DNA of 64,000 bases, taken from the NCBI RefSeq assembly GCF_044324875.1, contig NZ_CP172185.1, one strand, 5' to 3'. The DNA is from Escherichia coli. GTDB taxonomy: Bacteria; Pseudomonadota; Gammaproteobacteria; Enterobacterales; Enterobacteriaceae. The notes beneath the pieces were generated by a model. The model did no database searches and had not been told where the DNA came from. It saw nothing but the letters and a program-made list of their open reading frames with translations. Within the stretch, counting starts at the first letter, position 1. Each line of letters begins with the position of its first letter. The translations under genes were made by a program, and so were the position numbers. Positions 31,450 through 50,637 of the stretch are shown here, in pieces.

Positions 31450-32160
31450 GCATAGCCGGAGGTTTTTCAAATGCGCCTATAAGGCTCTCTTACCAGCCGC
31501 GCCCTAACAGGCGCACACGATCTGACATTTGCATCCAACTTCGTTACTTACGGCCCGTAAACGGGCTGCCCGGATAGGGAATCGATAACTGCTCTCCCAT
31601 TTTATCCTCTTCAAGCTGGTGCTTTATGTAATCCTGTATCTTCGCCGTGTTCTTACCCACCGTATCGACGTAATACCCTCTGCACCAGAACTCCCTGTTC
31701 CTGTATTTGAATTTCAAATCACCAAACTGCTCGTAAAGCATCAGACTGCTTTTCCCTTTCAGATATCCCATAAAGCCTGATACGCTCATTTTGGGCGGGA
31801 TCTCCACAAGCATATGGATATGATCTGCACAGCATTCAGCTTCCAGAATCCGTACACTTTTCCACTCACACAGCTTTCTCAAAATACAGCCTATTGCTCT
31901 ACGCTTCTCTCTGTAGAACACCTGTCTTCGGTATTTTGGCGCAAATACTATGTGATATTTACAGTTCCATCGGGTGTGCGCTAAGCTCTTTTCGTTCCCC
32001 ATTGGGACCCCCTTTTGATTTCTTGTTTGACACTTGCAGTTGCCAGACCGCAAGGTGTTTTAACAAATCAAAAGGGGTTTTAATAACTGGCTCAAAGCTG
32101 AAAGCTTTCCGGAACCCCCAGCCTAGCTGGGGGTTTTCTGTGCACAATAAGTCCGGACTG
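31450..32160 (-). mobile_element. IS200-like element (IS200/IS605 family), about 0.7 kb; ends approximate
   Basis: Contains Y1 (HuH) transposase gene; upstream of its ATG is a stem-loop that includes the SD, and further upstream a perfect palindrome ggaacccccagcctagctgggggtt at ~32103-32128; no terminal inverted repeats expected for this family. Confidence 0.7.
31544..32002 (-). CDS. tnpA: IS200-family TnpA Y1 transposase, 152 aa
   Basis: Translation MGNEKSLAHTRWNCKYHIVFAPKYRRQVFY... with HuH motif (ADHIHMLVEIPP) and catalytic Tyr region. Confidence 0.9.
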   Translation of the reverse strand: MGNEKSLAHTRWNCKYHIVFAPKYRRQVFYREKRRAIGCILRKLCEWKSVRILEAECCADHIHMLVEIPPKMSVSGFMGYLKGKSSLMLYEQFGDLKFKYRNREFWCRGYYVDTVGKNTAKIQDYIKHQLEEDKMGEQLSIPYPGSPFTGRK

Positions 32161-35652: not shown

Positions 35653-35943
35653 TTACGTACGCAGTCGTTCCGGCTTCTTCCAGTGGTACGTATTTTTCGC
35701 GCTCTCCCTCCGTTGTTGAGAACGGCGACGGTATGCCAGCAACTCAAGGACTCTTGTTCGTATGTTGCGCATATCCACGCCGTTAAGCTCAATACCATCA
35801 CGGCGCATCACCTCCGCAACAACACGCACATAATTTTCGGCGGTCACGCTGTCCGGCTGCGTGGCCTGTTCGTCATGCTGCTGGCTGATTCCGGTAACGC
35901 GGCGGATTAATCCCAGTAGTTCGGCTTCGCTCATTCTCGTCAT
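35653..35943 (-). CDS. Hypothetical protein (96 aa), start overlaps terL stop (ATGA)
   Basis: ORF start overlaps the terL stop; no recognisable motif. Confidence 0.4.
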   Translation of the reverse strand: MTRMSEAELLGLIRRVTGISQQHDEQATQPDSVTAENYVRVVAEVMRRDGIELNGVDMRNIRTRVLELLAYRRRSQQRRESAKNTYHWKKPERLRT

Positions 35944-37601
35944 ACCCCATCAAACGCCGCAAGCCGCTCTTTGTGGCTGTCGCTCATATCGAATGCAAAT
36001 TCCTCATGCTCTGCCTGGAATGTGCCAAACGCCATCAGCGCCGCAACGCTCGGGTCTATCTTGTTGGATGATTTTTTCTTGTTCGGCTTGATATTGGCGT
36101 TCGCGTCACTCTGCATCACAACATTACTCATTGACCAGGCCAGCACCGGATCACCACGATGCACAATCACCTTCCGGTTAACAAAAACTTCGAACGATTT
36201 CGCCGCCGGACTGAAACGAAGGTATGTTTGCGGGAACGGCTCCACCTCAAATCCCGCCCCCTGTAGCTGTGTTCTCAGGTGAGTGGCGTTCCATGTATCG
36301 AAGCCCACCAGCCTGATACTGAAATTCTCTGCATCCGCCATGATGTCATCACGGATACGGTCATAATCAATGCAGTCACCCGGTGTTGTGCGTATCCAGC
36401 CAGCCTTTACCCACTGGCGATAGATGGCGCGGTTTTTATTGGCGGGGTTCTGTAGCTGAAATTCCGGCAGATAGTGACGGGAAACCAGCATAATTTTTTT
36501 ACCGACCGGGAAGGCATAGCACACGCTGGAAATATCGCTGGTTGATGATAAGTCCAGCCCCGCGTAGCACTCCTGCCCGTATAAATCCGCCTCCGCGAAC
36601 GTTCCGGCGCACTCCGCCCATGCACCGTTACCCATCCACGGCGTAGCCCCCTGACACCAGATATTGAATCGCTTGGTGAGCATTTCCACCCACTGCGACG
36701 GAATACCCCGCGCTTTCTGGATGGTTGAGGCCAGTTTTTCACGATCGACGGAAACATCGATATTGGGATTCGCCTTTATCCACATCGCCGGATCGTCAAC
36801 CTCGCTTTCATCATCCAGCTCGTAAATCAGCACGAACATGGATTCGTTCACCTCTTCACCATCCAGTATCTGGCAGCAATAGTCATAGTGTTGTTTACAG
36901 GCTGAAACAACGTTGCTCCCCGATGTGGTGATGGCAAATAACAGCCCCTCCGGACGCGCCCCCATTCCCAGCTCAAGCGCGGAATAAACCCCGTTGTCAG
37001 GGTGCAGGTGATATTCATCCACAATGGCAAGACTCGGGTTTGTACCTTCAATGGTTGCCGCTTTTGCTGCCAGTGGCTTTAACAGGCTGTTGGTTTTCGC
37101 GTGTATCACCTTGTGTGCCTGAATATTTACCCGCTTTCGTAACGGTCGGGATAAAAGGCACATCTGACGCGCATCATCAAACACGATCCGCGCCTGATCA
37201 CGACTCACGGCGGCGGTGTAAATATCCTGCTGCCCGTTTTCCATAACCAGAAACCAGTTAGCCAGGATAGCGGCGACCGTGGATTTGGCATTTTTTCGCG
37301 GTACTTCAATGAATGCGCTGGTGTATTTGCGCCGTCCGGTGGCCTTAACCTTAAAGCCCAGGATGCACGCAAAGGCGAACTGCTGCCACGGCTCCAGCTC
37401 AATGGGGCTACCGCGCATTGCGCCTTTTACGTGCGGACACACCCTGGAAAAGGCAATAAACCGCTCCACGACCTCCGGATCGAACGTGTAAAGGGGGTTT
37501 TCAAGGTCAGAAAAATACCGTTTAACAGCCTGTTTCAGTCGTTTACAGGCCGTAATTTTGCCGTTTTTTACGCCTTCTGCGTACTCATGCCAGGCGGTCA
37601 A
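35940..37601 (-). CDS. terL: Terminase large subunit, 553 aa
   Basis: ATPase P-loop-like VPRKNAKST and Walker B-like LAIVDEYH, C-terminal nuclease-like region; overlaps terS 3' end. Confidence 0.85.
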   Translation of the reverse strand: MTAWHEYAEGVKNGKITACKRLKQAVKRYFSDLENPLYTFDPEVVERFIAFSRVCPHVKGAMRGSPIELEPWQQFAFACILGFKVKATGRRKYTSAFIEVPRKNAKSTVAAILANWFLVMENGQQDIYTAAVSRDQARIVFDDARQMCLLSRPLRKRVNIQAHKVIHAKTNSLLKPLAAKAATIEGTNPSLAIVDEYHLHPDNGVYSALELGMGARPEGLLFAITTSGSNVVSACKQHYDYCCQILDGEEVNESMFVLIYELDDESEVDDPAMWIKANPNIDVSVDREKLASTIQKARGIPSQWVEMLTKRFNIWCQGATPWMGNGAWAECAGTFAEADLYGQECYAGLDLSSTSDISSVCYAFPVGKKIMLVSRHYLPEFQLQNPANKNRAIYRQWVKAGWIRTTPGDCIDYDRIRDDIMADAENFSIRLVGFDTWNATHLRTQLQGAGFEVEPFPQTYLRFSPAAKSFEVFVNRKVIVHRGDPVLAWSMSNVVMQSDANANIKPNKKKSSNKIDPSVAALMAFGTFQAEHEEFAFDMSDSHKERLAAFDGV

Positions 37602-37941
37602 GCTCGTCCTCTTCCTCTGTTTCCGGTGGATTTCTGCGGCGGCTTACCGGGTCAAAACCCAGCAAAGAAGCCATTTTGATCATTATTCTTTCCGCGTCAG
37701 CCTTTGCGCTCAGGGCGGGGTTTCTGCTCTCGCTGCCCTGACTGTTAACAATGCTGAACCCGCGCGTGGCAAGGTCTTCGACGGCTTTGCGGTATATGGA
37801 GTAGTTAACGCAATACAGCTCCAGATTGCTCCAGTCGGCGGGAGTAAGGTCTTCCCGTCCGGAAAGCTGGCGCGATTTTTCCTTCCACTGCCTGACCGCG
37901 ATTTCATCCAGGTAAGCGGGGGCTTTTGGTGGTCTTGCCAT
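37585..37941 (-). CDS. terS: Terminase small subunit (P27-type), ~118 aa
   Basis: Translation MARPPKAPAYLDEIAVRQWKEKSRQL...; overlaps terL start by 17 nt. Confidence 0.7.
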   Translation of the reverse strand: MARPPKAPAYLDEIAVRQWKEKSRQLSGREDLTPADWSNLELYCVNYSIYRKAVEDLATRGFSIVNSQGSESRNPALSAKADAERIMIKMASLLGFDPVSRRRNPPETEEEDELDRLA

Positions 37942-38004
37942 GTTCTTTTTTCGCCCAATTATTTTCAAAAAAATTCCCGTGCACAAAAATTTGAGCAGGC
38001 GGTC

Positions 38005-38060
38005 GGTTCTGGGCGGGGTCGGGTTCGTCCTGAAAACTCCCCCCCACCCCGTCCGGCTGC
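38005..38060. other. Candidate cos/packaging-initiation region (GC-rich, lambda-cosN-like)
   Basis: gggcggggtcgggttcgtcc and ctcccccccaccccgtccggc between the HNH module and terS; resembles the lambda cohesive end GGGCGGCGACCT. Confidence 0.35.
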
Positions 38061-38064
38061 CTCA

Positions 38065-38247
38065 TCAGCGATTGCGGAAACATTCCATAACCTCGCGGTC
38101 ACGGTCGTTTAATCGCGTCGCTGTGATGCGTTCTGCGCGTCCTGATGCTTTATCTTTATGCCCTGTTTCCTGTGCCTTCCATGCGTCACGCTGCCTTATC
38201 AGTCCACGAATAAGGCTGTTTTGTTCCCGTTCATTCATCAGCGTCAT
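38065..38247 (-). CDS. Possible small hypothetical protein (60 aa) between HNH and terS
   Basis: Internal ATG of the 38065..38481 ORF, starting just before the HNH stop. Confidence 0.3.
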   Translation of the reverse strand: MTLMNEREQNSLIRGLIRQRDAWKAQETGHKDKASGRAERITATRLNDRDREVMECFRNR

Positions 38248-38671
38248 ACATCCAGTTATTGCGGTTGGCTGCCCGTTCTTCCTCCTCACGGAATCCGCCA
38301 ACTGCACGCTTGTTTTTTGTGGCCGGATCAAGCCATTTCGTTTTCTGGTTATGACACGCCTGACACAATGGCTGATGATTCCACTCAGGCCAGAAGAGAA
38401 CATCATTACCGCCATCGATGGGGATAATGTGATCCACCACCACGGCGGGCGTGTATATTCCTTTTTCCAGGCAATGCGCACATAACGGGTTTTTACTCAG
38501 GTACATAGCGCGGTATTTCTCCCACTGCCTCGTATACCCTCGCTCCCTGCTGCTGCCTCTCCGGCTGTCCTGCTGCTGGCGTGCGCTGCGTCTGTGCTCC
38601 TCACACTTGCCGGACTTCACGCGCCTGTTGCAGCCTGGTTGTGTGCATCGTCTCAATGGTTGCCACGGCAT
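38231..38671 (-). CDS. HNH endonuclease (terminase-associated), 146 aa
   Basis: Zn-finger/HNH motifs CTQPGCN...CEEH, CAHC, VDHIIPIDGGND, NHQPLCQACHNQK. Confidence 0.85.
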   Translation of the reverse strand: MPWQPLRRCTQPGCNRRVKSGKCEEHRRSARQQQDSRRGSSRERGYTRQWEKYRAMYLSKNPLCAHCLEKGIYTPAVVVDHIIPIDGGNDVLFWPEWNHQPLCQACHNQKTKWLDPATKNKRAVGGFREEEERAANRNNWMYDADE

Positions 38672-49407: not shown

Positions 49408-50637
49408 TTATTTTCTTCTGGCTACTGGTAGCGTGGTTACGTTTTCATGTGCTCCCGCCAGTATCTCCAACCGCTCCACCCACATATCCAGCGCATTGCG
49501 TTTCGCATCCAGATAACGGGAATGATTATAAACTCGCTGCATTCCTGGCATCTGGTGGCCTGTAAGCTGCTCCACGACATGCGGATCAACGCCTAAATCG
49601 TTCAGCATGGTTGTAAAGGTGCGCCGGATGTCATGCAGTGACCAGTGAGGGTGTTTAAGCCTCCTGTGCGCTAATCTTCCATACTGCGATACGCTGGCCT
49701 CCTGTTTCACTTCCCCCAGCAATAAGCCCGTGTGCCTGTTCTGCTCCACCAGCTGCGTGACGAACGGCAGTATCGCTTCCGGTATGGGCCGGAATATGGC
49801 TACCTTCGTTTTGCTGTGCTCCTTCGGAACGGTCCATAGCATTTCGGTAAAATCCCACTCCCCGATCTCCGATAGCCTCAGTTCTACTGTCCTGGCTCCG
49901 AAGACAATCAGGAGGCGGATTAGTGCGACGTAGTAAGGGGAAAATATTTTTTTATCCAGCGCCTGCAATAACTCGCCCAGTTCTTTGGTGCTTAAGACAC
50001 GTTCGCTTATATCCGGTTTTTTCCCAACGTCCGCCACGTTCAGATCGTCCAGAACGTTGCTGATTGCATAGCGCCGCCTACGGCAAAACTTAAGCGCCTG
50101 TTTGCACGCCTGTAGCACGAATCCGGCAGTAACAGGCGTTCGCTTTGCCACCTGGTCAAAACAGGCCAGCCAGTGCCGTAGCTCGCATTTATCCAGCGGC
50201 ATAGCACCAATGTGCTGTATTACGTGATTATTAACTCGCCTTTTCAGGGCGATATAATCCACGCGGTTTTCCTTTACGTAAGACTCAAGCCAGTAGGTGA
50301 GCGCATCGCCAACCGTTACCGGCTTTAACGCTTCCTGTACGGCGTAATTCATCTCATGGCGTGGATTTTTCCCCTCCGCCAGCCATGCGCGACACTGGGC
50401 GGCTTTTTCCCTGGCTGCTTTCAGGCTCAGATCAGGATAATTTCCCAGCTTAATACGTTCCGGTCGTGTCTCTCTTCCCGTTCCTGCCCTGTAAGTGAAA
50501 TACCAGGTTAATATCCCTGATGTTAAATATTTCACGCTCAGATTTCCGCCATCGCTATAAAACGTGTTTTTCTCCGCTGGCTTACCATGAAGTTTCCTTA
50601 GCAAGGTATCGCTCAGTTTGTTCATTGCTCTGCTCAC
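49408..50637 (-). CDS. int: Tyrosine integrase (P4-like family), ~405-409 aa
   Basis: C-terminal catalytic region HDIRRTF ... RVYNHSRY; adjacent to the att junction. Confidence 0.88.
   Translation of the reverse strand: MSRAMNKLSDTLLRKLHGKPAEKNTFYSDGGNLSVKYLTSGILTWYFTYRAGTGRETRPERIKLGNYPDLSLKAAREKAAQCRAWLAEGKNPRHEMNYAVQEALKPVTVGDALTYWLESYVKENRVDYIALKRRVNNHVIQHIGAMPLDKCELRHWLACFDQVAKRTPVTAGFVLQACKQALKFCRRRRYAISNVLDDLNVADVGKKPDISERVLSTKELGELLQALDKKIFSPYYVALIRLLIVFGARTVELRLSEIGEWDFTEMLWTVPKEHSKTKVAIFRPIPEAILPFVTQLVEQNRHTGLLLGEVKQEASVSQYGRLAHRRLKHPHWSLHDIRRTFTTMLNDLGVDPHVVEQLTGHQMPGMQRVYNHSRYLDAKRNALDMWVERLEILAGAHENVTTLPVARRK

Follow-up and report, generated by a model that had tools for sequence, protein, structure and literature searches.

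A predicted HK97-type cos site next to the terS gene of a capsid-forming satellite island in Escherichia coli

Gene content and identity of the island

The window, that is, the whole stretch of 64,000 nucleotides analysed here (Escherichia coli, contig NZ_CP172185.1 of assembly GCF_044324875.1), harbors an island at approximately 35.6-50.7 kb, which is located beside mdtJI/tqsA in the E. coli chromosome and embedded in flanks that are 99% identical to E. coli genomes. All genes of the island are encoded on the minus strand, including an integrase gene (int, 49408-50637), a primase/replicase gene (44873-46279), the genes for SSB, a prohead protease, a portal protein and two head-tail connector proteins, and the gene for the major capsid protein (41130-42332). 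No tail genes were found in the island among its ORFs and their PHROG matches.

The packaging genes lie at the end of this array. An HNH endonuclease of 146 aa (38231-38671, minus strand; phrog_144, E 4e-43), whose role is that of a packaging accessory nuclease, is homologous to the D3 orf96 HNH protein (E 2e-06), and its counterpart in E. coli RM9245 is annotated as HNH. It is followed by a small ORF of 59 codons (38065-38244, minus strand; phrog_3173, E 1.8e-34; function unassigned), which overlaps the stop codon of the HNH gene, and then by a non-coding intergenic gap of 123 bp (37942-38064) directly upstream of terS. The terS gene (37585-37941, minus strand, ATG at 37941) encodes a protein of 118 aa that belongs to the P27/Terminase_4 family (PF05119, E 1.9e-23; phrog_83) and shares 39% identity with the TerS of EPP-1, and the adjoining terL gene (35940-37601, minus strand) encodes an HK97-type large terminase of 553 aa (phrog_9, E 3.5e-180) with 28% identity to HK97 gp2 over ~500 aa (E 3e-49). 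The combination of HNH, TerS and TerL that a sequence-only reading of this DNA had called HK97-like is thus indeed encoded by the island according to the PHROG, PF05119 and gp2 matches, with a TerL of the HK97 type. The placing of the site is likewise that of the HK97/D3/phi1026b type, between HNH and terS and directly upstream of terS-terL, plus one extra ORF.

This extra ORF of 59 codons is conserved and annotated as a hypothetical protein in RefSeq relatives, whereas the annotations of Pasteurella Pmp8, D3 and phi1026b show no ORF in the corresponding place. The small ORF may correspond to the 'hypothetical gene 1792' of EcCIEDL933, the mutation of which severely reduced transfer.

The gene order, int ... 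pri/rep-ssb ... capsid-protease-portal-adaptor-connector-HNH-(small ORF)-terS-terL, is that of the EcCIEDL933-type capsid-forming PICIs (cf-PICIs), and the island is an EcCIEDL933-like cf-PICI on account of its gene content, its synteny with annotated E. coli relatives and the likeness of its TerS, which is 85% identical to that in the record of the virion-sequenced element of K. pneumoniae DSM 30104. Relatives of the island, with matching RefSeq annotation, are present in 491 of the 5,426 complete E. coli genomes. The cf-PICIs produce their own small capsids, package only themselves and borrow only tails from the helper phage (preprint 10.1101/2022.09.08.507074), and their packaging and that of an HK97-like helper are mutually exclusive (preprint 10.1101/2022.09.08.507074). 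The earlier suggestion that the island determines its own packaging specificity therefore agrees with what has already been shown experimentally for the cf-PICI family (preprint 10.1101/2022.09.08.507074). The DNA of cf-PICIs has also been reported to carry cohesive cos ends and to reanneal through them.

The GC-rich segment and its lambda-like motif

The segment at 38005-38060 had been singled out as GC-rich, and this is borne out by its G+C content of 71.4% against a window mean of 49.7%, a value matched by 0.2% of 56-nt windows; the remaining half of the 123-bp gap has 38% G+C. It had also been placed between the HNH gene and terS. The segment is non-coding and directly upstream of terS as described, but the 59-codon ORF separates the HNH gene from the gap. 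Two features had been pointed out within it, namely gggcggggtcgggttcgtcc, located at 38011-38030 on the plus strand, and a C-rich tract that follows at 38037-38054. The former was thought to resemble the lambda cohesive end GGGCGGCGACCT, with which it shares 8 of 12 bases. This is the level of chance: in a comparison of the lambda cosN with the whole window, 278 sites had the same 4 mismatches and 45 had 3 or fewer, so that the likeness carries no information. Moreover, the 20-mer at 38011-38030 falls mostly within a variable spacer of 18 nt, which is the least conserved part of the gap.

Conservation of the gap

The conservation of the gap was followed in 80 loci retrieved from IMG/VR by the TerS protein alone, which, together with the window, E. 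coli RM9245 and an EDL933-derived contig, gave 50 distinct gap versions. A larger set of 176 distinct sequences was collected partly by the left-arm blocks themselves, and conservation of the left arm was consequently judged in the 50-variant set, the unbiased one. On the sense strand, the 50 variants share a succession of blocks of fixed length, consisting of a G-box, a spacer, CC..CTCAAATTTTT and ..GC.C.G..ATTTTTTTGAAAATAA; the spacer is followed by AAC or CAC and a C-rich 10-mer, and after the left-arm blocks, which extend to 37959, the sequence is variable up to the terS ATG. These cos blocks are common to all 176 distinct relatives. Pasteurella Pmp8, whose TerS is 60% identical, keeps the same blocks at the same 43-nt spacing.

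The first block, the G-box ACGGGGTGGGGGGGAGTTTTCAGGAC (38027-38052, minus strand; near-invariant consensus ACGGGGTGGGGGAGGTTTTCAGGAC), begins 12 nt after the end of the small ORF and forms the right-end arm of the site. It is the tract that had been noticed as C-rich, and its mean top-base frequency among the 176 distinct relatives is 0.935, compared with 0.72 for the spacer and 0.745 for the third codon positions of terS. The exact G-box GGGGTGGGGG occurs a single time in the window. Its role would be that of a docking site for the terminase/HNH pair or of a termination signal.

The spacer (38009-38026, minus strand; GAACCCGACCCCGCCCAG on the sense strand) varies in sequence at a fixed length of ~18 nt, at least 10 sequences having been found at this constant length, and it differs even between elements with 100% identical TerS. 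Together with the G-box it forms an inverted repeat that is complementary at 11 of 13 positions in the lineage of the window only, the other lineages having 4-8 of 13. A hairpin or cruciform between the G-box and the spacer was rejected, as the repeat is confined to the window lineage and folding is no better than that of shuffled sequence.

Downstream of the spacer lies the predicted cosN (37996-38008, minus strand), composed of the conserved AAC (38008-38006) and the predicted 10-nt cohesive end CGACCGCCTG (38005-37996 in the sense direction). Position -1 (37996) is a G in the window and a C in ~99% of the 176 distinct relatives and in all 382 loci first fetched. A mutation private to the window was considered and discarded, since E. 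coli LH50-c shares this G, as TUM1886 probably does with the same one-mismatch match. The left-end start, CTCAAATTTTT (37985-37995, minus strand), which would supply the first packaged bases, varies little or not at all among the 50 variants retrieved through TerS, and it is followed by GTGCACGGGAATTTTTTTGAAAATAA (37959-37984, minus strand; +12 to +37 from the predicted nick), which by analogy is a candidate TerS site of the cosB kind. Within the latter, T7-GAAAATAA is near-invariant among the variants and kept in Pasteurella Pmp8. The left-arm consensus matches the window once, with 0 matches expected by chance.

Physical ends in relatives

All of the evidence on DNA ends was obtained from relatives with a TerS ~85% identical to that of the island, or from phages with TerS at 34-39%. 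Linear DNA with unique ends at the cos locus was found for three relatives, namely vB_KppS-Ant, PQ569648.1 and the IMG/VR contig 3300022664_000095.

The vB_KppS-Ant record (LR881103.1, 'Escherichia phage vB_KppS-Ant') was assembled with SPAdes from Nextera XT reads of K. pneumoniae DSM 30104 particle DNA (PMC8006926), the strain being that whose cf-PICI KpCIDSM30104 was studied later. The record is permuted with respect to the integrated form, starting 22 nt before terS and ending in ...TTTTCAGGAC, and it is without 69 nt of the gap that are held by six loci 95-99.9% identical to Ant. Linear DNA is expected to lose terminal sequence in this way when the library is made by tagmentation. Its authors described the element as a filamentous ssDNA prophage; the genes that it carries are those of a cf-PICI, with one accessory gene annotated as a tape measure protein.

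In PQ569648.1, the last 15.9 kb are a cos-permuted cf-PICI that breaks in the same gap and is joined to unrelated DNA. This record ('Klebsiella phage P12620-1', 106.5 kb) is chimeric, being composed of ~90.6 kb of unrelated sequence and the cf-PICI (90.6-106.5 kb of the record), which runs from the start of terS to the end of the small ORF.

The base-level evidence is provided by contig 3300022664_000095, a permuted metagenome contig of 15,518 nt that is colinear with Ant, carries int in its middle and is without a terminal repeat. It reads from CTCAAATTTTTACGC... to ...CAGGACAAAACCCAAGCCGCAAGGCAC, so that it starts at CTCAAATTTTT and stops 10 nt short of it. In 24 of the 25 continuous relatives that match both ends, the interval between the matches is exactly 10 nt (consensus CACCCGCCCC), and in the one other it is 9 nt. 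Since filled-in 5' overhangs would be duplicated at both ends and blunt ends would abut, the 10-nt gap is the trace expected of 10-nt 3' overhangs after end polishing, the 3' polarity being read from this pattern in a single metagenome contig of unspecified library type. An assembly-graph bubble is an unlikely source of the 10-nt gap, for it would need variation at the first and last bases of the 10-mer, both of which are nearly invariant. A scan of metagenome_contigs with the left-arm motif (78 matches) and a second IMG/VR scan gave no second cos-terminated contig. Apparent ends at L212, L203 and L142 were discarded as boundaries of storage chunks rather than contig ends, while contig L061 truly begins at the stop codon of the small ORF, which is uninformative for the nick position.

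Register of measured cos sites

Several phages with characterized ends were used as references. HK97 is cut at the junction of the end and start of its record with 10-nt 3' overhangs, and the cutting is stimulated by its HNH protein gp74 (PMC11331095, PMC9410871); its TerS site, CTAACCCGATTTTTT at +15 to +29, consists of a G:C run followed by an A-tract (PMC11331095). The cos of D3 is 9 bp, GCGCCCCCA (PMC12407980), and the last 9 nt of the D3 record are the published sequence. The phages phi1026b, phiE125 and phi644-2 have ten-base 3' extensions, 5'-CGCCCGCTTC-3' (PMC2920897), and the last 10 nt of the phi1026b record are this measured extension. The EPP-1 record was corrected with PhageTerm (PMC11043334). 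HK022 was dropped as an independent reference, its terminase module being the same as that of HK97.

Each nick-anchored junction of 107 nt was slid without gaps along both strands of the whole window, which amounts to 127,788 registers. The junctions of phi1026b (52/107, z = 5.6) and EPP-1 (51/107, z = 5.4) both ranked 1 of 127,788 with base -1 at 37996 on the minus strand, the very base that was obtained independently from the ends of contig 3300022664_000095, and the HK97 junction ranked 4 of 127,788 at the register with base -1 at 37996. The D3 junction was not significant in this test (rank 2074 of 127,788). The SfV junction, used after a shift of its record break, ranked 25 and is given little weight. 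Searches of the window by blastn-short with the HK97, D3, EPP-1, phi1026b and SfV junctions missed the site, which was found by the same search with the Pasteurella Pmp8 junction (E 0.001).

The arrangement around the nick is also held in common. In HK97, D3, EPP-1, phi1026b and the cf-PICIs alike, 40-44 nt separate the end of the G-box from the nick, 'AC' stands directly before the overhang in all eight sequences compared, and the overhang is C-rich and the left end T-rich. In the same register, phi1026b starts with GTCAAATTTTC (in longer form GTCAAATTTTCACGCC, versus CTCAAATTTTTGTGCACGG here) and EPP-1 with CCCCAATTTTT. The SfV record (NC_003444.1) breaks 17 nt upstream of the register of EPP-1, phi1026b and the cf-PICIs despite having the same motifs, and its G-box comes within the range of 40-44 nt only after the break is shifted by these 17 nt; the start of SfV as deposited may differ from its real cos end.

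The predicted cut and competing explanations

As both the physical ends of relatives and the measured cos sites point to the gap upstream of terS, the cos of the island is placed there. The region of ~37959-38052 is probably the cf-PICI cos, of the HK97/D3/phi1026b type with HNH assistance and 3' overhangs. The predicted nicks lie at 37996|37995 on the gene-sense (minus) strand and at 38005|38006 on the other strand, leaving a 10-nt 3' overhang, CGACCGCCTG; these positions are chosen because the contig ends, the breaks of virion assemblies within the gap and the registers of phi1026b and EPP-1 agree. A first guess, made by aligning the site with HK97 by eye and setting the nick after CTCAAA, was abandoned because it is 6 nt off according to the contig ends.

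The proposal of a candidate cos site thus stands as regards the packaging site in the gap upstream of terS and fails as regards the cohesive end, which is not the flagged 20-mer. The segment at 38005-38060 is the right-hand arm of the cos, and the predicted cohesive end (37996-38005) overlaps only its first base. The cut most likely falls ~10 bases to the side of the highlighted motif and is of the HK97/phi1026b kind, not of the lambda kind, and the 20-mer, judged from its variability among relatives, appears to be the one dispensable part of the cos region.

The nicks might instead be displaced by a few bases within the same cos region, or their stagger might not be 10 nt. The base-level ends are taken from one contig, and bases at contig termini may be dropped or gained in assembly; the stagger is 9 nt in D3 and one relative has the 9-nt interval, and the SfV record breaks outside the common register. 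Nevertheless, three independent references, the contig ends, phi1026b and EPP-1, agree to the base, and the 'AC' before the 10-nt block is conserved in 8 of 8 sequences compared, which makes such a displacement improbable, if somewhat less so than the following two explanations.

A second explanation equates the lambda-like 20-mer at 38011-38030 with the cosN, where a cut of the lambda kind would produce 5' cohesive ends of ~12 nt. The motif is GC-rich and situated in the correct gap, its imperfect inverted repeat with the G-box in the window lineage loosely recalls the symmetry of cosN, and the Ant record has its right end at the edge of the 20-mer. However, the inverted repeat is specific to that lineage, the match to lambda is a chance match, and conservation within the gap is lowest in the motif, which differs among elements with identical TerS. 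The terminase is of the HK97 type with a Terminase_4 TerS and not Nu1/gpA, 5' overhangs would have duplicated the contig ends where a 10-nt gap is seen, and the register tests point 6-15 nt away. A lambda-manner cut is therefore highly improbable, and the island site is not of the lambda type.

Least probable of all is that the conserved blocks are transcription or translation signals of terS-terL and that packaging is initiated elsewhere or is headful (pac). In favor of this reading, the A/T-rich block just upstream of terS could hold a promoter or UP-like sequence, and the predicted secondary structure is weak (z = -1.6) but present. Against it, the measured ends of phi1026b, D3 and HK97 are flanked by these very motifs, and virion-derived assemblies of relatives end uniquely here and are not permuted. 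On the gene strand of the gap no sigma-70-like promoter or intrinsic terminator was predicted, the gap matched no Rfam family, and its folding was no better than that of shuffled sequence. Headful packaging was set aside for the fixed ends that the virion and metagenome assemblies of relatives have in the gap.

Proposed mode of action

The gene content, the conservation of the gap, the end signatures of relatives and the agreement in register with measured cos sites are observed. Under the preferred reading, an HK97/phi1026b-type cos with 10-nt 3' ends, we infer that cleavage takes place in the window's island and which protein reads which element. After induction, the island would excise and replicate, and its TerS would bind the G:C-plus-A-tract site at 37959-37984, just downstream of the cut. 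With the help of the HNH protein, TerL would then nick the sense strand at 37996/37995 and the other strand at 38005/38006, which would result in 10-nt 3' cohesive ends with CGACCGCCTG on the sense strand. The terS side would enter the small capsid made by the island first; this left end reads CTCAAATTTTT, then CACGGGAA plus T7 at +15 to +29, with the terS ATG at +55. Last to enter would be the arm with the G-box (38027-38052), which lies 43 nt upstream of the cut and would probably help to place the terminal cut at the following cos, or to set it off.

The TerS site is assigned by analogy only, because no similarity is detectable between HK97 gp1 and the Terminase_4 TerS of the island. As for the G-box and the adjacent 'AC', it is conceivable, if rather doubtful, that they form a shared element for recognition or termination which the conserved TerL/HNH pair reads and TerS does not, a suggestion based on the sharing of this GGGGTGGGG-like element by phages with unrelated TerS proteins (HK97 gp1 versus the Terminase_4 proteins of phi1026b, EPP-1 and the cf-PICIs). 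If this were true, the discrimination between satellite and helper would reside entirely in the downstream TerS site, and cos specificity would be modular and swappable.

Relation to known packaging sites

The closest counterparts are phi1026b, phiE125 and phi644-2, which, like the island, have an HNH gene upstream and a Terminase_4 terS downstream of the site (TerS 34% identical). In phi1026b, the G-box ends 42 nt before the nick, 'AC' is followed by a C-rich 10-mer, and the left end starts with (G/C)TCAAATTTT; its best ungapped match in the whole window lies exactly in the nick-anchored register. The differences include the cohesive end (CGCCCGCTTC in this group versus CGACCGCCTG in the island), the spacer, and the downstream A/T-tract block, which is specific to the island in comparison with phi1026b. 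Furthermore, the island is a tail-less satellite of 15 kb, whereas phi1026b is a phage of 55 kb.

HK97 shares the order HNH-cos-terS-terL and homologous TerL and HNH proteins with the island, and its G-run ends 42 nt before the nick. The G:C run and T7 tract span +17 to +29 in the island versus +19 to +30 in HK97, and the terS ATG is at +50 in HK97. In contrast, the TerS of HK97 is without detectable sequence homology to that of the island, and its module runs HNH-cos-terS-terL-portal-protease-capsid, whereas the island puts the capsid genes before HNH.

The cf-PICIs EcCIEDL933 and KpCIDSM30104 have the same gene set and order as the island and a size of ~15 kb, and the island TerS is 85-100% identical to that of many cf-PICI members; the island is set apart from other cf-PICIs by its mdtJI/tqsA insertion, its rare spacer type and the rare G at -1. 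The lambda cos (cosQ-cosN-cosB) has the same general logic, with a nicking site between a terminase-binding site that is packaged first and an upstream element that is packaged last. It differs in its 12-nt 5' overhang GGGCGGCGACCT of opposite polarity and in its terminase families, and the island system involves an HNH protein.

The cf-PICIs are recently described and widespread satellites, and the predicted site would represent their DNA signal for self-packaging at the level of bases. Packaging through cos and cohesive ends were already known for cf-PICIs, and no paper giving the base-level cos of E. coli cf-PICIs was found in the searchable literature, subscription literature lying outside the search; what is added here is a well-supported in-silico map of the expected site. 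The map offers a testable minimal packaging signal in four parts, namely the G-box, a tolerant spacer, the 10-nt 3' cohesive end and the candidate A-tract TerS site, which could be utilized for constructing cos-plasmids for cf-PICI capsids, for spotting cf-PICI termini in virome data, and for studying how satellite and helper phage are kept from packaging one another's DNA. It leaves the picture of how such cos sites work unchanged, the site being ordinary for its kind and useful rather than surprising.

Additional features of the island and its surroundings

A C4 antisense RNA (Rfam RF01695, 72 bits, E 1e-12) lies at 47472-47559 (minus strand) in the regulatory region of the island, where it adjoins the ORFs at 47247-47831 and 47707-48792, whose C-terminal ends look duplicated. 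Iteron-like direct repeats at 44662-44875, consisting of three copies of TTTTGCTCCCCACTTTTT ~84 nt apart and a pair of 46-nt repeats, are directly downstream of the primase/replicase gene and are probably the replication origin of the island. Outside the island, between ynfM and asr, an ORF at 31544-32053 (minus strand) resembles TnpA of the IS200/IS605 type, as judged by eye from its translation.
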